Origin: Alphaproteobacteria bacterium
GTDB taxonomy: Bacteria; Pseudomonadota; Alphaproteobacteria; SP197
NCBI GenBank assembly: GCA_965228895.1
Contig: OZ245842.1
Location: 3,808,001 to 3,872,000 of the forward strand
Reading direction: 5' to 3'
DNA: 64,000 nucleotides
Each line of letters opens with the position of its first letter. Position 1 is the first letter of the stretch. The position numbers and the translations under genes are program-made. Positions 20,105-31,353 of this stretch are shown here, in pieces. The notes beneath the pieces are model-generated. The model had not been told where the DNA came from. It made no database searches and saw only the letters and a program-made list of their open reading frames with translations.

Positions 20105-21850
20105 CTAAGCAGCCTTGCCGGCCCGCGCGCGCATAAGACTCACGGTGCGGTCGTTCAGAAACTGGTAATGCTCGGCCAGATACGGAGAAATCTCCGCGTT
20201 GTGAGCACTGAACAGGTTCATCGCGGCGTTCACTTCGAACACAACAGGCCGGCCCTCGCGCGTGACACCAAAGTCGATGCCATAGACGTCGAGCGGCGTG
20301 TTCTCGATGATCGGCGCGAAGACCTTTTTCCAGTCGAAACCCAGGAACTCGTCGGGGTCAGCCAGAAATTCCTGCTCGATCTTGTCAAAGCCGCTTTCCA
20401 GCCATTGCGGCGTTCGGCGCAGGTGGTCGTGCGACGAAAAGTCGACGTGTGAATTCGCCCTGTCGACGAAAGCCTCGTCGCCGATAATGACCGCGCGATA
20501 GTGTCGTCCGACACCTTGCTCGTCGCGGCACTCGTGGTACTGGGTGACGAAGTATTCCGGCAGGCTCATGTCGACCAGTGCTTCGCGCAGCGCATCGGGA
20601 CCATCGAACAACCGCATGCCCATGCCGAGATTGGTTTGCGGATGGCGAATCAGAACCGGCCATTCGAAATCCGCCTCGATCTCCGCGATGATGCTTTCGG
20701 CTGTCGACGTTGCCGGCCTCAAGTGCGTCAGCCGTGGAAAGATAAACGCTGATTCCGATGCAAACCTTTGGGCGTTCTTTTCGCGCCCGCATGCCAAAAC
20801 CGCGTCTAGTCCGTTGATGACGGGAATGTCGTCGGCCTCATACAGCGCGACGAACTCGTCATAGAGATCCCGCGTCGGCGCACTCACGCTTTCGCTGACC
20901 ACAAGATTGTTCACGAAGATGTCGGGACGCACGCCCGCTTTCTCAAGATGGTCCGGCGCACGCGGCGAAAGCGGTACATGAAGCACGCGCATATCCGGCG
21001 ACGCGACATAAGACGGATAATTGAGGCCGCTATAGTTCAGAGGACTCTGACGATTGAAGAACGACGGGCCGAAGTCTTCGAGCACGGCGATAGTCAAGCC
21101 GGCGCTTTTTCCCTTTTCCGGTCCGCGCACGCTGAAGGGCCTGATCTCAAGCGCCCGTCCTGCCGCTGCCAGGGCGCCTTGAGCGCTGCCGGCACCAAGC
21201 CGCGCGACGGAAAGAAGCGTGAGCGTGTTGAAGTTGCCGGGCTGCGCGGCATCGGCTTCTTCGAGAACACGCACCGCCTCGGCGTGGCGATCCAGGTCGC
21301 ACAACGCATGGCCGAGAACGAGCACATTGGCGGGAGCGGTCAGGCCCAATGTCCTGGCCGTGGCGGCGTGCTCGGCGGCTTTCTCCACCTGGCCGTCATG
21401 CAGATAAAGGTTGGCCAACGTCGCGTGACAGCGCGCGGATTTCGGATGGCGGGCCAGAAGGCCTTCCAAACAACCAATGGCCTGGCCGATGTCGGCCTGG
21501 CGATGGTGGATCTCCGCCAGCAGCAGACCCGGATCGATCTCGTCGGGAAACCGGGCGACCAGCGCCTCGGAAGCAGTCCGCGCGGCGTCCAGCCGGCCGG
21601 CGCACACATGCGCGTAGCAGGCCGCGTAATCGGCCGCCAGGCTGCCGGTGTGGTCGCGCCCAAGCGCCTCGGCGATACCGTCGGGTCCCTGGGGTCCGTG
21701 GACGCGCAGGCCCAGATCCATCGCCAGCCGCGCCGCGTCGACCGTATCGGTGTGCTGGCCGGCGAGCGCACTGGCGGCGACAAACGCCTCCGACACCTTG
21801 CCCGACCGCGCAAGCTGGTGGATCCGGCCGATTTCCTCTCGTGGCGCCAC
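20105..21850 (-). CDS. TPR-repeat protein fused to a RimK-like ATP-grasp domain
   Basis: Ala/Leu-rich TPR helices in the first ~240 aa; 'WPVLIR..TNLGMGM', 'YFVTQY', 'YGIDFG..GRPVVFEVNA'. Confidence 0.75.
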   Translation of the reverse strand: MAPREEIGRIHQLARSGKVSEAFVAASALAGQHTDTVDAARLAMDLGLRVHGPQGPDGIAEALGRDHTGSLAADYAACYAHVCAGRLDAARTASEALVARFPDEIDPGLLLAEIHHRQADIGQAIGCLEGLLARHPKSARCHATLANLYLHDGQVEKAAEHAATARTLGLTAPANVLVLGHALCDLDRHAEAVRVLEEADAAQPGNFNTLTLLSVARLGAGSAQGALAAAGRALEIRPFSVRGPEKGKSAGLTIAVLEDFGPSFFNRQSPLNYSGLNYPSYVASPDMRVLHVPLSPRAPDHLEKAGVRPDIFVNNLVVSESVSAPTRDLYDEFVALYEADDIPVINGLDAVLACGREKNAQRFASESAFIFPRLTHLRPATSTAESIIAEIEADFEWPVLIRHPQTNLGMGMRLFDGPDALREALVDMSLPEYFVTQYHECRDEQGVGRHYRAVIIGDEAFVDRANSHVDFSSHDHLRRTPQWLESGFDKIEQEFLADPDEFLGFDWKKVFAPIIENTPLDVYGIDFGVTREGRPVVFEVNAAMNLFSAHNAEISPYLAEHYQFLNDRTVSLMRARAGKAA

Positions 21851-22045: not shown

Positions 22046-22308
22046 ACCTCCGTACATTGTCTCGCGATCGCGCGAAGCGCCGTTTCTTAGAGCCCCGGCA
22101 TCCAGCCATCGGGCCCCAGGACATCGCAGGAGAACGTCACCGGCACCACGGACGAGATTGTCCGCGGGCGGTCTTCTCCGGGCGGCACATCATCCCGGGA
22201 ACAATCATAAAAACACCGCCGCACCGGCCGCGCCCGGGGCAGGCAACAAGCCGGGACATCCGCGTGCGCAACAGCCGCCCGCGCCACCCGGTCATTAAGG
22301 AATCTCTA

Positions 22309-23574
<1,266 letters not shown>

Positions 23575-23793
23575 AGAAGTGCCCACGAGACAGACTAGGT
23601 TAATCGCTGCCAGTTGACAGACAAACGCACGAGAGTTCTAGAAGCTCAATAGAATCCAGAGCTTCTGTTGCGTGTGATTGCACGAGGTCGAGAACGTACA
23701 GCGGCTATTAGTGTAGCGCTCTTTACGTCGCGCATTGCATACTGCAGCAACCTTGACTGCTCATTGCCGCCGCCTCAATGTGAATTTCTAGAA

Positions 23794-26700
23794 TTGGCTC
23801 TTCTCGCTGCAACCCAAATTCCAAAACCTGCTGACGAACAGGCGTTCGAGCGTGCGTCGGTTGTATTGTGGCAGAATCTACTCAACGATCCAAACGTCAA
23901 GAAGAATGGCCGCCGCGGTCAACGACAAAACGGAGTGGACCTCTACGGGGTTCGAAACGCTGACCCCGAACATCTCGTTGGTGTTCAGTGCAAACTAAAA
24001 GGCTCAAACAGAGAGCTGAAGGAACAAGAGGTCCGTGACGAGGTCGATCTGGCGCTGACGTTCAAGCCCAAGCTCCGCGAATTCTTCATAACGACGACTG
24101 CACCAGACGATACTAATCTAGACGAGCTAGCACGCGAACTTTCGGTAGACCTGAGCAAAAGGGGTTACCAACTGGTCGTTCACGTGTGGGGGTGGAATAC
24201 ACTAGAAGAAAAGATCCAAGAGTTTCCCGACGCCTTAAACGCGTTTGATCCATCCCACAGCGCGTTCAGTAGTCAACTAGACGACAAGATTGACAAACTG
24301 TCGTCGGACTTGGTTGGACCAAGTGGCTTTATAGCCGAACTCCAGTCTACAGTCTTACGCATAGAAACAGGAATTCGAGACAGACCAAGTGATGCTGGGC
24401 ACTCGTCAGATGACTTTGATTCTCATCTTGATGCCGAGATCGATGACTTCCGAAGGATATCAATCGAAGGCAAACCACACACCGCACTTTCACTACTCTC
24501 AAATCTTCAAGAACGTGTAGAGCCGAATGCATCCGGTCGAATACTCTTTCGTATCAAAGCAAACATTGGAAGTTGCTATTTTCAGTTGGGTGAAACCGAC
24601 AAGGCTGCCAGTCTGCTAGCCGAGGCCTACGAGCACTGCCCAAACGACCCAAAAGCGATTGCCAACAAGGGGCTGTCGTTACTGCTGCAAGGAAACTGGC
24701 AGACCCTCCTGGAGTTTGGTGCTGAAGCTCTAAGACAAGACCCTACCAATGATGGAATAGCAGGCTACTTGGTACAGGCCGCACGCTTTGATGCAACGAT
24801 CGACGAGCCACTTGACCTAGTCCCGGATGAACTGAAGGGATCCGCTGCAGTGGCCATTGGTCGCATAGACTTTCTCAGGTCACGTGGCGCAACAGCTGAA
24901 TGGAGAAGAGCCGCACTAGATGCAAGAACCGCTTACCCGGACGACGATCAAATTGGACAGTTCGCTGCAGAAGCTGCCCTCGACGAAGTAGTCCAAAGCG
25001 CCAACTTTCAGCGGTCAGGCTTGCTCGATGACAAGCAAAAGGAGGAGGTCGCAGCGGCAATTCAGACACTAGGCCAGCTTTGGGAGCGCGCACTCAACAG
25101 TGAGCGAACAGTGCGACCAGAAGAAGTCGCTCTCTGCTGCAATCTCATCGCGGCATACGACGCTCTCGGTGATTCGAGCACGGCGTTGGAGATCGCCAGG
25201 CAAGGTATAGAAGTTGCCCGGCACGACATGGACCTTGCGTTACGAACCGCCGCCATTGCGATAGACAATCACGAAGATGAACTCGCAGAAGGGCTGTTGC
25301 CAAGCCTTCCTGACGGACCAGCTGCGGCGGTTCTTCGATTCCGTTTCTACGCCCAGGCTAGTGAGTGGCAGAAGGTAGTCGAACTTTGTAAGGACAGTGT
25401 TGAACTGCTCCCTGAAGTGGAGCGCACTTTGATAACGGCCACAGCGCGCCTTTCAGAAATACACCTTAACCCCGGTGATGACTCCTACTCCCGCCTAGAC
25501 AAAGTGATTTCCGATGTAGCGGAAGATGCAAGAGCATCCGTCGTGGCCGCAGACTTCGCCAGCATGCAAGGGCATGATGATCTTGCTGGCAGGGCATACA
25601 GCAATGCCAAGGCTCAGATAAATGACCACAGTCACATAGCTGGTCGGATGATGACAGCAATGTACGCCGCGAGGATCAATGACTGGTCCGTGGTTGCAGA
25701 TCTTCTGGACGGCCACATTGACGAAAGCTCTGAGAGCGATGAATTGCACGCTCTATCCATAGCGCTTGCAAACGAAATCCCAGTTCGGGATCGGGCGGTT
25801 CGATTCTTTAGCCGGCTTCCTGCAGCTATTGCTGATCTCGCCTTTTATCGACACGCAGCTGGAGTAATGCACTTCAATCGCGGCTCGTTGGACGAAGCCG
25901 AAACCAACTTGATGAGGGCTATTAAACGTGATCCGCGTGTCGATACTTATCTGGTCCTATTCGCAACGCTTCGGCGAATGGATAGAAGTGACGACATAGT
26001 ATCAATTCTAAACTCGGTTAACCCTGAGTCTTTGGATGGTGCGGCCGGTCCGAAGATGCGACTTGCGCAAGAAATGTGCCAGGCAGGTCAAGGCGCTCGA
26101 TCCTTAAAGTACGCATACGACGTTCTCAAGGCCGCAAGGAATGACCCGGAATCATCGCTTTTGTACATGGGGCTAATCCTGTCCGACCGATCCGGTGAAC
26201 TTTTGCCGATGTCAGATAGCGTCAGCCTCGATGCTTGGGTTCGCATCGAGAACCATAACGGTGAAAGCTTTGATTTCATAATTGAGCAAGGTGAGGATCG
26301 CCCAGCCGAGGGGTTTCTTAGCCCACACCATGCAATAGTTTCCGCTAGTCTCGGAATGAAGGTTGGCGAAACGTTCATTCAAGAAGCTGCGATTGGCGAG
26401 AGAACTACGTGGCGTATCGTTGAGATAAAGCACAAGTACCTACACTTGCTTCATGACGTTATGGAGAATTTCCAAACCCGTTTTCCGGACGCACAGGGCT
26501 TTCACCGCTTTACATCGGAGAATGGAAACATTGAACCGATGCTTCAGGACATTCGGAACCGTGCGGAGGCCAATCGTCAAATTGCTGACTTCTACCTCCA
26601 GCAACACCTGCCAATGGCATTTGTTGCCCCTCAAATGGGTGGCAATGAGATAGAGCTTGCCGACTACGTTCGATACCTCGGTGAAGAAGTTCGAGTTTGC

Positions 26701-27762
26701 ATCGGAACAGATGCTGAGCGACTTGGTGCCCTATCATTGATCGATAGCCTCCGTTCAAACGGCGCAGTTCTCGACAACTACACTGCGTGGACAGCGGCAA
26801 ACATGGACATCTTAGATGTTCTTGTCGAAGTGTTTGGAAGAGTCCTTGTGCCCCAATCGGTCATCGACGAGCTCCGGATACACAAAGAAGAAGTTAAGCA
26901 ACTTGAGGGCTCCACGCTGGTCGCCTGGAAAGATGATGAGTTTGTGAGGCAACAACACACGAGCAACGAAATCTCGAAGCGAACAGCACATATCGAAGAG
27001 CAAATCCAAAAAATAGTCCGGCACTGCACGGTCGCCTCAAGTACGGCGCCAGATGAACCATCCCAAGTCGCCTCTGCTGTAACGGCAGCCTTCGGCGGTC
27101 ATGTTCTCGATCCTGCGAACTTAGCTTCTGACAGAAAACTCCTCATATCGGAAGATATCTACTATCGGCAGCATGCGGATGCAGCGGTATCAGCTAAGGG
27201 GGTATGGCTTCTGGTCGTCCTGGAGTACGCACTTTCGCATGGACTGATTACTCGGATGCGATTTGCGGACGCAGTGGCGCAACTCGCACTTAGGCGTCAC
27301 GGTTACGTATTGCTTAGAGTCGAAACGCTTCATGATGTCTTGAAGAGCGACGGGACACCGAGATTAGATTACTTCTCTGCCGTGGCCGAGTACATTGCCC
27401 CCGATAGTGCCGACATCAGACTTCACACGATATTCGCAGGCCTCTTTCTTGGCCAAGTCTGGGCTAATCCGTGGGTCGTCACTTTAAAAGAAAGACGTGC
27501 TACAGGTGTGGTTCTTAGCCGACTCGTTCACCGCAAAGGCAGCAACGGATCTATGGTCCTTGCGCTGCTCATCAAACATGCAAACGGAGCGCTTAGACGG
27601 TACATTCTAGATTGGATGGAAGGTCATTTTGTCAGCTTATCGACGGTAGAGCGGTGCCTTGTCGACGTTGTTGATCATCAAGCAAGAAGATACCTGTTAG
27701 AACTTACAGAGCCAAAACCGATCCGCGCGCTTGCTTCGACGAACTGGCCTCTTAACGACTAA
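23794..27762 (+). CDS. REase-like + TPR + GreA/B-C + PIN multidomain protein (probable anti-phage/conflict effector)
   Basis: 'FE...GRRGQRQNGVDLYG...VGVQCK' nuclease motif; TPR helices; 'FLSPHHAIVSASLGMKVGETF..WRIVEI'; PIN 'AVLDNYT..VLVPQSVIDEL..VLD..ISED'. Visibly lower GC than the flanks. Confidence 0.8.
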   Translation: MALLAATQIPKPADEQAFERASVVLWQNLLNDPNVKKNGRRGQRQNGVDLYGVRNADPEHLVGVQCKLKGSNRELKEQEVRDEVDLALTFKPKLREFFITTTAPDDTNLDELARELSVDLSKRGYQLVVHVWGWNTLEEKIQEFPDALNAFDPSHSAFSSQLDDKIDKLSSDLVGPSGFIAELQSTVLRIETGIRDRPSDAGHSSDDFDSHLDAEIDDFRRISIEGKPHTALSLLSNLQERVEPNASGRILFRIKANIGSCYFQLGETDKAASLLAEAYEHCPNDPKAIANKGLSLLLQGNWQTLLEFGAEALRQDPTNDGIAGYLVQAARFDATIDEPLDLVPDELKGSAAVAIGRIDFLRSRGATAEWRRAALDARTAYPDDDQIGQFAAEAALDEVVQSANFQRSGLLDDKQKEEVAAAIQTLGQLWERALNSERTVRPEEVALCCNLIAAYDALGDSSTALEIARQGIEVARHDMDLALRTAAIAIDNHEDELAEGLLPSLPDGPAAAVLRFRFYAQASEWQKVVELCKDSVELLPEVERTLITATARLSEIHLNPGDDSYSRLDKVISDVAEDARASVVAADFASMQGHDDLAGRAYSNAKAQINDHSHIAGRMMTAMYAARINDWSVVADLLDGHIDESSESDELHALSIALANEIPVRDRAVRFFSRLPAAIADLAFYRHAAGVMHFNRGSLDEAETNLMRAIKRDPRVDTYLVLFATLRRMDRSDDIVSILNSVNPESLDGAAGPKMRLAQEMCQAGQGARSLKYAYDVLKAARNDPESSLLYMGLILSDRSGELLPMSDSVSLDAWVRIENHNGESFDFIIEQGEDRPAEGFLSPHHAIVSASLGMKVGETFIQEAAIGERTTWRIVEIKHKYLHLLHDVMENFQTRFPDAQGFHRFTSENGNIEPMLQDIRNRAEANRQIADFYLQQHLPMAFVAPQMGGNEIELADYVRYLGEEVRVCIGTDAERLGALSLIDSLRSNGAVLDNYTAWTAANMDILDVLVEVFGRVLVPQSVIDELRIHKEEVKQLEGSTLVAWKDDEFVRQQHTSNEISKRTAHIEEQIQKIVRHCTVASSTAPDEPSQVASAVTAAFGGHVLDPANLASDRKLLISEDIYYRQHADAAVSAKGVWLLVVLEYALSHGLITRMRFADAVAQLALRRHGYVLLRVETLHDVLKSDGTPRLDYFSAVAEYIAPDSADIRLHTIFAGLFLGQVWANPWVVTLKERRATGVVLSRLVHRKGSNGSMVLALLIKHANGALRRYILDWMEGHFVSLSTVERCLVDVVDHQARRYLLELTEPKPIRALASTNWPLND

Positions 27763-27873
27763 CCTGCTCTACGAGAGAAACAGCGTATGTTGGTATACAC
27801 GAATGGCCTTCCCAGCATCGGACCACTCTCTATTACGTACTCGGTTTAACCTAGCCGCTAACCGGGACACCCC

Positions 27874-30800
27874 ATGACCCTCGCCGACGTCGCGTTGGAC
27901 GATCGTTACGCCCTCCAAGAGGGACGGGTGCTCATGTCGGGCACCCATGCGCTGGTGCGCCTGCCTATGTTGCAGCATGCCCGGGATAAGGCGGCCGGCC
28001 TCAACACCGGCGCCTATGTCACGGGCTATCGCGGTTCGCCGCTGGGCGCGATCGACATGGCGCTGTGGCAGGCCGGGCGCTTTGCCGATGACGCCGGCAT
28101 CCGGTTCAATCCCGGCGTCAACGAGGACCTGGCGGCGACGGCGGTCTGGGGGACGCAGCAGACGCATCTCTTCGACGACGCCACCGTCGACGGCGTCTTC
28201 GCCATGTTCTACGCCAAGGGGCCGGGCATCGACCGGTCGGGCGATGCGCTGAAGCACGGCAACACGGCGGGCACGTCGCCCCATGGCGGGGTCCTGGTGC
28301 TGGCGGGCGACGACCACACCTGCAAGTCCTCGACCTCCGCGCACCAAAGCGAGTTTGCGCTGGTCGACGCCATGATCCCGATCCTGCACCCGGCGGGCGT
28401 CCAGGAGTTCCTGGATCTGGGCCTACACGGCTGGGCGATGTCGCGCTTCACCGGGCTTTGGACCGGCTTCAAGCTGGTGTCCGAAACCGTCGACACGACG
28501 GCGACGGTGGCGATCGACCCCGCCCGGGTCCGCATCGTGCTGCCGTCAGACGCAGCCCTGCCGCCGGAAGGCGTGCACCTGCGCCTGCCCGACGACGCGC
28601 TCGCCAAGGAGGAACGCCTGCACCGCTATAAGCTCGACCTGGCGACGGCCTACGTACGCGCCAACCGGCTCGACCAGCGGGTGTTCGGGAAGGCCGACGC
28701 CCGGCTCGGCATCGTGACGACGGGGAAGTCCTATCTGGATGTACGCCAGGCGCTCGACGAGATCGGACTGACGCCGGGGCTGGCCGAGGAGCTGGGTGTG
28801 GCGCTCTACAAGATCGCCATGCCGTGGCCGCTGGAGCCCGAAGGCATCGCGGACTTCGCCTCGGGCCTCGACGAGATCCTGGTGGTCGAGGAAAAACGCG
28901 CGCTGATCGAACCGCAGATCCGCGACCAGCTCTATCACTTGGCCGACGGCAAGCGCCCGCTGGTCATCGGCAAGAAGGACGAGGCGGGCGCCACCATCCT
29001 GCCGTCCTGGGACGAGCTGTCGCCCGCCATGATCGGCGACGTCATCGCCCGGCGTCTGGCGCGCTTCGGTATCGGCGGCGAACTCGCCGAACGCGCGGCG
29101 CGGCTCAAACAGAAACTCAGCGCCGAGAAAGGCGACGCCGCGCCGATCTCGCGCATCCCCTATTTCTGTTCGGGCTGCCCGCACTCCTCCTCGACCCGGG
29201 TGCCCGACGGCAGCCAAGCCTTCGCCGGCATTGGCTGCCACTATCTCGTCCAGTCGATGGACCGCGACACCCTCACCTTCACCCAGATGGGCGCGGAGGG
29301 CGCCAACTGGAACGGCCTCTTCCCGTTCCGCGAGGCCGACCACGTCTTCGTCAATATCGGCGACGGCACCTATGTGCATTCGGGGTCGCTGGCGATCCGC
29401 GCGGCGGTCTCGGCCGGCGTCAACGTCACCTATAAGATCCTCTATAACGACGCCGTCGCCATGACCGGCGGCCAGGCGCCCGAAGGCCACCCGACGGTGC
29501 CGCAGATCACGCACCAATTGTTCGGCGAAGGCGTCAAACGCATCGCCGTCGTCACCGACGAGCCCGACAAGTACCCGGCCGATGCCGGTTTCGCCAAGGG
29601 CGTCAGTGTGCATGACCGCAAGGACCTCGACCGTGTCCAGCGCGACCTGCGCGAGGTGAAGGGCGTCTCCGCGCTGATCTACGATCAGGTCTGCGCCACG
29701 GAGAAACGCCGGCGGCGCAAGCGCGGGACGATGGCCGATCCCGACAAGCGCGTCTTCATCAACGAAGCCGTGTGCGAGGGCTGCGGCGATTGCGGCCTCA
29801 CCTCCAACTGCCTCTCGGTCCAGCCGGTCGAAACGGCGTTCGGCAGGAAACGCCAGATCGACCAGTCGTCGTGCAACAAGGATTTCACCTGTGTCGACGG
29901 CTTTTGCCCGAGCTTCGTGACGGTCGAAGGCGCTGCTGTCAGGAGACCCGCCGAGACTGCCATCGACCCCGCCCTGTTTGCCGCCCTGCCCGATCCCGAC
30001 AGGCCCGACCTCGCGCGGCCGTGGTCGATCCTGATCGCCGGCGTCGGCGGCACCGGCGTCGTCACCATCGCGCAACTGTTGGGCATGGCGGCACACCTCG
30101 AAGGCAAGGGCGTCGCGGTGCTCGACCAGATCGGGCTCGCGCAAAAATACGGCGGCGTCACCAGCAACGTGCGCATCGCCGCCGAACCGGGCGACCTCTT
30201 TGCGTCGAAGATCGGCGTCGGCGGCACGGACCTGCTGCTCGGCTGCGACCTCGTGCAGGCGGCGAGCGCCGACGTCATCGCGCGGCTGGCGGATGACCGC
30301 AGCAACGCCATCGTCAACAGCCACGAGACGCCGACCGGCGATTTCACCCGCCAGCCGGACGCGCCGCTGTTCGGCGATGTCCTGCGCGCGCGCATCGAAA
30401 AGGCGTGCGGTCCCAACCACACCCGCTTCGACGATGTGGCGGCCATCGGCACGGCGCTCTTCGGCGACAGCATCGTCAGCAACATCATGCTGCTCGGCCT
30501 CGCCTATCAGATGGGCGTGGTGCCGCTCTCGGCCGAGGCCATCGAACGCGCGGTCGCGCTGAACGGCACGGCGATCGACCAGAACATCGCCGCGTTCCGC
30601 ACCGGACGTCTGTTGGGCCACGACGCCGAGAAGGTCACGAAGCTCGCCGAGGCCGCGCGTCCGGCCTTACCCCACCGCCACATCCCCGAAAACCTCGCCG
30701 ACCTCATGGCGCTCCATCAGCGCCACCTCACCGCCTACCAGAACGCCGCCTATGCGGAGCGCTACACCGCGCTGGTCGAAAAGGTGCGCGCCGCCGAGGC

Positions 30801-31353
30801 GAAGGCCCTGCCCGGCCACGACGACCTCGCCCAGACGGTCGCGAAGAGCTACCTCAAGCTGCTCGCCTATAAGGACGAATACGAAGTCGCGCGGCTTTAT
30901 GGCGACAGCGCCTTCGCCCGCCAGCTCGCGCAAACCTTCGACGGCTCCATGAAACTCCACGTCCATCTGGCGCCGCCCCTGCTGGCGCGCACGGACCCGG
31001 CGACGGGAAGACCTGAAAAACGGACGTTCGGGCCGTGGATCCTGCCGGTCTTCGGCTTTCTGGCGAAACTCAAAGGCCTGCGCGGCACCGCCTTCGATCC
31101 CTTCGGCTACTCGGCCGAACGCAAGATGGAGCGGCGGTTGATCACCGACTTCGAGGCCGATGTCGCGCTGATCCTCGACCATCTCGACGCCGGCAACCAT
31201 GCGCTCGCCTCAGAACTCGCTGCCTTGCCCCAGGCCATGCGTGGCTTCGGACCGGTCAAAAAAGCGAACGTCGAGAAAGCCGAACAGCGCCGGCCGGCCT
31301 TGCGCGACGCCTTGATCGGTGGTGGTGTTGGCCGAGCCGAAGCCGCGCAATAA
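27874..31353 (+). CDS. Indolepyruvate:ferredoxin oxidoreductase-family protein (fused alpha/beta)
   Basis: 'GYRGSPLG', 'NEDLAATA', 'FCSGCPH', 'GDGTY', ferredoxin 'CEGCGDC', 'GVGGTG', 'AYKDEYEVARL'. Confidence 0.95.
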   Translation: MTLADVALDDRYALQEGRVLMSGTHALVRLPMLQHARDKAAGLNTGAYVTGYRGSPLGAIDMALWQAGRFADDAGIRFNPGVNEDLAATAVWGTQQTHLFDDATVDGVFAMFYAKGPGIDRSGDALKHGNTAGTSPHGGVLVLAGDDHTCKSSTSAHQSEFALVDAMIPILHPAGVQEFLDLGLHGWAMSRFTGLWTGFKLVSETVDTTATVAIDPARVRIVLPSDAALPPEGVHLRLPDDALAKEERLHRYKLDLATAYVRANRLDQRVFGKADARLGIVTTGKSYLDVRQALDEIGLTPGLAEELGVALYKIAMPWPLEPEGIADFASGLDEILVVEEKRALIEPQIRDQLYHLADGKRPLVIGKKDEAGATILPSWDELSPAMIGDVIARRLARFGIGGELAERAARLKQKLSAEKGDAAPISRIPYFCSGCPHSSSTRVPDGSQAFAGIGCHYLVQSMDRDTLTFTQMGAEGANWNGLFPFREADHVFVNIGDGTYVHSGSLAIRAAVSAGVNVTYKILYNDAVAMTGGQAPEGHPTVPQITHQLFGEGVKRIAVVTDEPDKYPADAGFAKGVSVHDRKDLDRVQRDLREVKGVSALIYDQVCATEKRRRRKRGTMADPDKRVFINEAVCEGCGDCGLTSNCLSVQPVETAFGRKRQIDQSSCNKDFTCVDGFCPSFVTVEGAAVRRPAETAIDPALFAALPDPDRPDLARPWSILIAGVGGTGVVTIAQLLGMAAHLEGKGVAVLDQIGLAQKYGGVTSNVRIAAEPGDLFASKIGVGGTDLLLGCDLVQAASADVIARLADDRSNAIVNSHETPTGDFTRQPDAPLFGDVLRARIEKACGPNHTRFDDVAAIGTALFGDSIVSNIMLLGLAYQMGVVPLSAEAIERAVALNGTAIDQNIAAFRTGRLLGHDAEKVTKLAEAARPALPHRHIPENLADLMALHQRHLTAYQNAAYAERYTALVEKVRAAEAKALPGHDDLAQTVAKSYLKLLAYKDEYEVARLYGDSAFARQLAQTFDGSMKLHVHLAPPLLARTDPATGRPEKRTFGPWILPVFGFLAKLKGLRGTAFDPFGYSAERKMERRLITDFEADVALILDHLDAGNHALASELAALPQAMRGFGPVKKANVEKAEQRRPALRDALIGGGVGRAEAAQ

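Follow-up and report, generated by a model that had tools for sequence, protein, structure and literature searches.

A stand-alone TGP-family gene with a predicted Mrr-like nuclease head: candidate anti-phage cargo of a chromosomal slot in an alphaproteobacterium

Does a single foreign gene in an alphaproteobacterial chromosome encode an anti-phage system of its own? The question is raised by the window, the whole stretch of 64,000 nucleotides analysed here (contig OZ245842.1, positions 3,808,001 to 3,872,000 of the forward strand). A gene at 23794-27762 of the window had been described by an earlier note, made from the sequence alone, as a stand-alone protein with a restriction endonuclease (REase) domain, TPR repeats, a GreA/GreB C-terminal-like (GreA/B-C) domain and a PIN domain, and as a probable anti-phage system. 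The gene proved to be a new and rather divergent member of an established family that was defined by computation and has been validated in part, that of the TPR-GreAB-C-PIN (TGP) systems. It probably encodes a stand-alone TGP-family anti-phage protein with an Mrr-like effector, acting as an abortive-infection sensor-effector through the full mechanism set out below, and a role in defence was judged highly likely. New here are the slot whose cargo is swapped in sister species, the structural confirmation of the nuclease head and of the Gre-like domain, and the conserved helical tail.

The open reading frame (ORF) of about 1320 residues reported at these coordinates was upheld, with 1322 codons and a start matched by homologues. 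The gene and its parts were as follows (pLDDT, predicted local distance difference test):

23794..27762, + strand: TGP-family gene, 1322 codons plus stop, with a TTG start where homologues have ATG
23806..24258, + strand: predicted Mrr-like PD-(D/E)xK (restriction-endonuclease fold) domain, residues 5-155, from predicted structure and motif
24259..24468, + strand: helical linker, residues 156-225, with predicted helices, pLDDT 41-65 and a conservation index of 0.37
24469..26202, + strand: TPR/helical repeat scaffold, residues ~226-803, from Pfam and NCBIfam
26203..26433, + strand: GreA/GreB C-terminal-like domain, residues 804-880, from structure and profile
26434..26754, + strand: helical linker between the Gre-like and PIN domains, residues 881-987, with model helices 102-117 and 135-210 and a conservation index of 0.55
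26755..27240, + strand: PIN nuclease domain of the TPR-GreAB-C-PIN family, residues 988-1149, from PF20698 and the PIN fold
27241..27759, + strand: family-specific all-helical C-terminal tail, residues 1150-1322, from model helices (~1150-1305)

Taken together, Pfam, a profile search of the PDB and predicted structure returned the domains in the order REase-TPR-GreA/B-C-PIN. Structure models covered residues 1-230 (alignment of 29 rows) and residues 780-1322 (AlphaFold2; 25-row alignment; mean pLDDT 83.4). The N-terminal PD-(D/E)xK motif seen by the earlier note was recovered by predicted structure, with a pLDDT of at least 88 for residues 11-150 save for the block 41-50 (71). In VIA-align comparisons the predicted nuclease head was aligned with AF1548 (1y88; Z 12.5) and Avs4 (8dgf_B, residues 2-175; Z 11.1), and with MspJI (Z 9.5), FokI (Z 9.5), LlaBIII (Z 9.3) and AspBHI (Z 9.2), the matches to AF1548, Avs4, MspJI and FokI each covering 131-136 aligned residues. 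Foldseek also matched the head to MspJI (E 6.7e-5). The catalytic motif of Mrr is D...QxK. The putative catalytic residues were E19 (23848-50), D49 of the GVD motif (23938-40), and Q65 and K67 of the Q65-C-K67 stretch (23986-94), and E19, D49, Q65, C66 and K67 were invariant in each of two alignments (29/29 and 28/28 sequences). Matches to Mrr_cat models were found in the relatives P0082 (precomputed PF04471) and P0157 (23.8 and 23.4 bits; cut-offs 22 and 21).

The TPR scaffold was confirmed by Pfam, with TPR_14, TPR_1 and TPR_2 over cut-off at residues 254-300 (E 1e-9 to 1e-8), and by NCBIfam TPR-protein models that spanned residues 221-790. The GreA/B-C domain, which had been placed at about 26220-26430, was found at 26203-26433 and was aligned with GreA (9a7t_B; Z 12.4; root mean square deviation 1.6 A; 75 residues), Gfh1 (Z 11.9) and GreB (Z 10.0). 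A profile of 25 C-terminal halves matched GreB 2p4v (E 1.4e-4) with the Ser-Pro...Gly...Gly-acidic stretch aligned, and a precomputed PF01272 match was present in 36 of the 120 homologues listed. Complex prediction of the Gre-like domain with the rim-helix segment of RNA-polymerase beta-prime (91 aa) scored 0.00 vs a mark of 0.32, was made without controls and is no evidence either way. The block K879-H880-K881, at the start of linker 881-987, was invariant.

The PIN domain with intact acidic residues (about 26760-27160 in the earlier reading) was confirmed by PF20698, 'PIN domain associated with the TPR-GreAB-C-PIN system' (80.8 bits; E 1.5e-22; cut-off 27.8), to which residues 992-1129 were aligned at profile positions 1-137 of 138. 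By VIA-align the domain matched PAE2754 (Z 9.6) and VapC4 (Z 9.2). D994 (VLD), D1106 (VLD) and D1121 (SED) were invariant (40/40), and D1025 (IDEL) and E1120 were at least 90% conserved. The conservation index was highest in the REase head (0.65, vs 0.37-0.55 in other parts of the protein), and the alignments indicate that the catalytic residues of both the REase head and the PIN domain are under selection.

The C-terminal tail and linker 156-225 had the lowest conservation indices in the protein (0.37-0.38 for the two), yet the tail contained a conserved RRHGH stretch and the invariant residues H1169, H1211, W1274, G1277 and H1278. When the tail (from the 780-1322 model) was compared with known structures, there was no specific match, generic helical-repeat proteins reaching Z 7.3 at most, and the Atlas feature search of residues 1150-1322 gave nothing at 0.9 or above (best 0.88; unnamed clusters). 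The His/Arg-rich helical tail could be a contact site for phages or polymerase. Three parts of the protein had been left out of the earlier description: the low-confidence helical linker 156-225 (about 70 residues), the helical linker 881-987 and the helical tail 1150-1305. The tail and the linker after the REase domain are also not mentioned in the TGP family description, as far as the available portion of Kaur et al. 2021 (PMC8195603) extends.

The longest open frame ran from 23668 to 27762 (+ strand; 1364 aa), and the product for this gene in the protein collection (P0002) had 1362 aa, with additional N-terminal residues that had no counterpart in homologues. ATG, followed by MS(L)LAATQIPKP, was present at the exact position of the window's TTG 23794 in 34/36 related loci (GTG in one; unresolved in one), and in nine related loci the upstream frame opened just 9 nt 5' of the start. 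The consensus N-terminus of 40 aligned full-length homologues was MSLLAATQIPKP. The start at 23794 (1322 aa) was taken as correct because the starts of homologues aligned exactly there.

As the earlier note had observed, GC content was lower than in the neighbouring genes. It was 0.48-0.57 across 23400-27899 (600-nt windows) vs 0.64-0.70 on either side, and nowhere else in the 64-kb window did a 1-kb bin fall below 0.599. The GC of the TGP gene was 0.518 and its GC at third codon positions (GC3) was 0.512, vs a GC3 of 0.860 in the upstream helicase gene and 0.877 in the downstream oxidoreductase gene. In related loci, the GC of the TGP gene was more than 0.03 below the flanks in 15/35 and below them at all in 26/35. 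By its composition and its absence from relatives, the gene was horizontally acquired and is foreign to its genome.

Homologue search scored 7998 candidates, of which 285 proteins matched with E no higher than 0.001. The 120 homologues listed were nearly all of 1250-1360 aa and were 39-52% identical over 94-100% of the query, the nearest of them, with the window's own product excluded, being from Rhodoblastus acidophilus (52% identical); precomputed PF20698 was present in 118 of the 120. A scan of one genome per species gave 38 loci, mostly in Hyphomicrobiales and other Alphaproteobacteria. Syntenic conservation in all relatives, which the earlier note had set against a defence role, was looked at and not seen: a full-length match to the TGP protein was found in none of 30 relatives (two congeners had weak TPR-only matches), and PF20698 was over cut-off in 0/30 relatives and in 2/300 other genomes drawn evenly from the class. 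In a family-level relative, a 2147-codon open frame had a sub-threshold PF20698 match (26.5 bits; G018:C1:327157-327498), and, from this match, the frame may be a distant TGP-like protein. Three loci (L002, a Pseudomonadota metagenome-assembled genome, MAG; L003, a Nitrobacter MAG; L008, a 'Bordetella parapertussis' MAG) had matching TGP termini and neighbour-gene clusters, a likeness that points either to a mobile region common to them or to a bin with the wrong label.

Used alone as a profile, the nuclease head matched, out of 1.84 billion, 3842 cluster representatives with E no higher than 0.001, of which 2814 had E no higher than 1e-10. Pfam scanning of seven of the 150 nuclease-head matches listed (three more were dropped for size) showed all seven to be TGP proteins or a PF24407 sister architecture. 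In P0141, P0181 and P0183 the same nuclease head was followed, at about residue 835, by PF24407 (helix-turn-helix upstream of double PIN) in the place of the Gre-like domain. From these sequences, the polymerase-docking module seems to be replaced in the PF24407 sister architecture.

Neighbouring genes were compared by greedy ORF calls, made for the window and for 36 related loci and grouped by BLASTP. No neighbour cluster occurred at more than 6/37 loci, and the TGP gene stands alone, without a conserved partner in the 37 loci, as the earlier note had claimed. The commonest immediately upstream ORF pair was present at 5/37 loci (three Bosea, one Methylocystis and one further Bosea locus); at L009, L010, L011, L014 and L030, two co-directional ORFs (about 154-289 and 253-308 aa) lay directly upstream of the TGP gene. 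Among the nearest ORFs, 116 in all (two per side at 31 loci, leaving out the window and five loci that were near-duplicate or broken; heuristic calls, some of them spurious), no Pfam family occurred more than 4 times: HTH_36, DnaD_N and RP-C each matched 4/116 neighbours and Toprim_2 matched 3/116. By PADLOC, strong defence neighbours were Upx (5e-165), PtuA (2e-142), PD-T7-5 (1e-94) and Dsr1 (3e-78), with further AbiLi (8e-71), AbiEii (4e-60) and a DRT (8e-40). No formal enrichment in defence genes is claimed because the PADLOC tally included generic ATPase false positives ('mad3' on an ABC transporter).

Context for the gene was also obtained from the site that it occupies, which consisted of the following:

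22057..23574, + strand: DEAD-box helicase gene, conserved left border (PF00270 E 1.4e-52; PF00271 E 1.7e-31)
23575..27861, no strand: variable low-GC cargo segment of ~4.29 kb, from three-genome alignment and GC
27874..31353, + strand: indolepyruvate/pyruvate ferredoxin oxidoreductase-like gene (DUF6537, POR, TPP_enzyme_C), right border

In two genomes of the same genus (G001 and G002) the orthologues of the helicase (90-93% identical) and of the oxidoreductase (92% identical) were again about 4.3 kb apart, and the DNA of the slot was unrelated to that of the window and was low in GC too (0.40-0.56). Homology among G000, G001 and G002 broke at the stop codon of the helicase and resumed about 12 bp (G000) to about 60 bp (G001 and G002) before the start of the oxidoreductase. 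The slot of G001 contained a 1359-aa Type IIG restriction-modification enzyme (L044:2196-6275; minus strand; GC 0.46-0.56), with matches to Eco57I (E 1.3e-35), PADLOC REase_MTase_IIG (E 8.4e-65) and DrmMI-like (E 7e-92), and also to N6_Mtase and TaqI_C. The slot of G002 (L045:4114-8233) contained a 700-aa HerA-type ATPase (PADLOC HerA; E 1.8e-30), with no family match in its first ~400 residues, and three small ORFs (189, 127 and 237 aa) with no Pfam or PADLOC match; this cargo may be a HerA-based defence cassette.

The chromosomal slot exchanges defence cargo between sister species. As independent evidence from context, the Type IIG enzyme and the HerA cassette in the sister slots speak for a defence role of the TGP gene. 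The helicase and oxidoreductase borders were not adjacent in three family members that are more distant, and the slot was therefore seen in this genus only (two congeners), with no empty version of the site among the genomes compared. No tRNA was found in the 64-kb window, and no integrase or direct or inverted repeats were found bracketing the cargo segment. Two genes upstream, at 20105-21850 of the window (minus strand), was a 581-aa TPR protein with a local GC of 0.59-0.61, slightly under its surroundings, which was unrelated to the TGP gene apart from the TPR repeats.

In the mechanism proposed, the constant core of the protein (TPR, Gre-like domain, PIN and helical tail) would be the sensor, and its Gre-like domain would dock on the rim of the secondary channel of the host RNA polymerase, like GreA, GreB and Gfh1. 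Takeover or modification of transcription by a phage would change the state of the core, which would probably oligomerise through its TPR and helical parts. The PIN domain would cut RNA at or near the polymerase, and the N-terminal nuclease, silent before, would be switched on and would cut DNA, so that the infection would be halted and the cell sacrificed (abortive infection). That the N-terminal Mrr-like nuclease is the output is inferred from two analogies, the N-terminal output of Agp, the tested TGP protein described below, and the nuclease heads of Avs receptors. For the sensing step, the earlier note had suggested that the protein may respond to phage interference with RNA polymerase or serve as a decoy for anti-Gre proteins, and then release both nuclease activities; these steps are likewise inferred. 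Avs effectors cut DNA after ligand-induced oligomerisation. A more specific form of the proposal is put forward tentatively and is itself doubtful: the TGP core would be a guard of the host RNA polymerase, reading the state of the secondary channel and not a phage molecule, and the REase form would couple this reading to cleavage, at the transcribing complex, of both nascent RNA (by the PIN domain) and DNA (by the Mrr-like head). If true, this would be transcription-coupled dual-nuclease immunity without a described precedent.

That TPR, GreA/B-C and PIN architectures had been predicted computationally as conflict systems, as the earlier note stated, was borne out, and the interpretation given in that note matches the prediction published for this family, which already covers proteins headed by an REase. 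The available portion of Kaur et al. 2021 (PMC8195603; eLife 10:e70394) describes a TGP core combined with one of 13 N-terminal effectors, REase included, and describes TGP systems as mostly stand-alone genes. In the model proposed there, the Gre-like domain binds a hijacked RNA polymerase at its beta-prime coiled coil, the PIN domain cuts the transcript that is extruded, and the N-terminal effector serves as a suicide arm kept in reserve. The present clade may already be tabulated in the source data of that paper. The earlier statement that no mechanistic characterisation was known has become outdated. According to the available portion of a preprint on Bab/Agp of E. coli ECOR25 (bioRxiv 10.1101/2024.11.07.622273), Agp and Bab give abortive defence against T5, two GreA/B-C substitutions in Agp abolish T5 defence, and a PIN active-site substitution in Agp abolishes defence yet destabilises the protein.

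Several results weighed against the reading of the gene as a stand-alone abortive-infection protein with an Mrr-like effector. No Pfam nuclease or REase model, including Mrr_cat (PF04471) and Mrr_cat_2 (PF13156), matched this protein at E up to 1. The profile of the N-terminal 230 residues matched no nuclease among PDB sequences but solely coiled-coil proteins (E at least 0.048), on linker 156-225, which is possibly a coiled coil; the REase assignment therefore rests on predicted structure and motif. Pfam GreA_GreB (PF01272) scored 21.6 bits at residues 807-879, under the cut-off of 26.9. A scan of sigma-70 consensus sites gave no sigma-70-like promoter in 23400-28100, terminator-like sites in the same region numbered three vs 4.6 expected, and the start codon was TTG instead of the ATG of the family. 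Interrupted TGP copies were present in 5/36 related loci (L027, L028, L029, L033 and L034; first open stretch 82-828 codons), and decay of the TGP gene is therefore not rare. Strong defence matches were a minority of the 116 neighbour ORFs and many neighbours were housekeeping genes.

The catalogues and the literature gave points on the same side. A check against PADLOC, which the earlier note had advised, returned a weak PIN-only match to PDC-S70 and no full-length match. Membership of this candidate system was rejected (best E 3.7e-4; 18.7 bits; residues 1002-1055 only), and with PIN-only weak matches the gene is thus not in the PADLOC catalogue. In the available portion of the preprint (10.1101/2024.11.07.622273), no Bab-independent first-line activity of Agp was seen. 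Among experimental literature on the TGP family, with subscription journals mostly uncovered, the Bab/Agp preprint alone was found, and none was found on an REase-headed TGP protein.

The main rival explanation was direct, non-abortive, transcription-coupled restriction, in which the Gre-like domain would tether the protein to RNA polymerases at work on phage DNA, the head would cut the phage template, perhaps by recognising modified DNA in the manner of type IV enzymes, the PIN domain would remove the transcript and the cell would survive. The closest folds of the head do include the type IV enzymes MspJI and AspBHI and the Mrr-like head of LlaBIII (Z 9.5, 9.2 and 9.3), but the nuclease head of Avs4 scored as high or higher (Z 11.1), and in this protein Pfam showed no domain for reading DNA modifications (SRA, YTH or similar). 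Action of the core on the hijacked polymerase as a first line, before suicide, is among the proposals in the available portion of Kaur et al. 2021 (PMC8195603), whereas the sole TGP protein tested, Agp, was abortive and showed no effector-independent activity in the portion of the preprint available (10.1101/2024.11.07.622273). On balance direct restriction was considered unlikely. A function outside phage defence was judged improbable, whether as a toxin or addiction module of a mobile element, as a weapon in another conflict (with plasmids or competitors) or in RNA-polymerase-associated quality control of RNA or DNA. Such a function would suit the homologues on plasmids (L032, a Mesorhizobium plasmid) or beside replication and conjugation genes, and the HTH_36, DnaD_N, RP-C and Toprim_2 families among the neighbours. 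It agrees poorly with the restriction-modification enzyme and HerA cassette that occupy the slot in sister species, with the lack of a conserved antitoxin-like or immunity-like partner in the 37 loci, and with the lack of a secretion signal or toxin-delivery domain in Pfam; a housekeeping role misfits the presence of the gene in about 1% of genomes and its absence from congeners.

The gene could also be an unexpressed or decaying passenger, an intact-looking frame without current function in its host. The TTG start, the lack of a promoter-like site, a GC3 far from the host optimum and the interruption of 5/36 related loci would all fit such a passenger. TTG is, however, a legitimate bacterial start and the promoter scan was limited to sigma-70 consensus sites; the frame of 1322 codons was free of stops, and every invariant residue of the family was kept, both catalytic sets included. 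This explanation was held to be very improbable. The abortive sensor-effector with an Mrr-like nuclease output was accordingly kept as the preferred reading of the gene.

The TGP family is widespread yet almost unstudied, and its effector-fused members are the simplest form in which monitoring of RNA polymerase through a Gre-like domain could be tested, since the work would involve a single gene with its docking domain and two active sites that can be mutated. The locus is a clean natural case of a defence slot that swaps single-gene cargo, unmarked by integrase, tRNA or repeats. For annotation, 'TGP-family REase/PIN defence candidate' is preferable to the 'TPR repeat protein' or 'PIN domain-containing protein' given to homologues.

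Among known systems, Bab/Agp shared the TGP core and the logic of a sensor core with an N-terminal output. Agp has a short N-terminal amyloid motif that templates Bab, a membrane-targeting Bell-domain protein encoded by the adjacent gene, whereas the output here is a fused nuclease and no small gene is adjacent. Membership of Bab/Agp was rejected: the N-terminus was a folded nuclease and not a BASS11 motif, and the cargo segment held no small gene, its flanks being the helicase and the oxidoreductase. The STAND receptors Avs3 and Avs4 (PDB 8dgf and 8dgc) shared the fold of the nuclease head and its N-terminal position on a large repeat-containing sensor. They carry an ATPase and a phage-protein-binding repeat domain where the TPR-Gre-PIN core stands here, and membership was rejected, as no P-loop or STAND NTPase was among the Pfam matches at E up to 1. 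The type IV enzymes Mrr, MspJI and AspBHI shared the catalytic fold and the D...QxK-type motif (D49, Q65-x-K67); the present protein differed in having no modified-base reader, in being much larger and in having Gre-like and PIN domains in addition.

GapS6b (TPR plus PINc) is a component of GAPS6, a two-gene system from Vibrio GMT islands that has been validated and protects against coliphages, according to the available portion of its preprint (10.1101/2023.03.28.534373). Its model has about 1090 positions, and its PIN region aligned weakly with the present PIN domain. GAPS6 has two genes and that portion of the preprint reports no REase head for GapS6b, whereas here there is one gene with an REase head. 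Membership (NF047936) was rejected, at 14.4 bits vs a cut-off of 850, over the PIN region only and with no partner gene. Two further papers concerned other systems: Kaur 2020 (PMC7159879) was rejected as the source of TGP, with 'TGP' occurring 0 times and its REase mentions referring to other systems, and the PIN systems in the available portion of the DefensePredictor paper (PMC13092281) are others and not TGP. With the TGP system the present protein shared the order of TPR, GreA/B-C and family PIN domain, the variable N-terminal effector, the stand-alone gene and the sporadic distribution. It showed no essential difference from that system, as a member whose nearest relative is about 52% identical to it.

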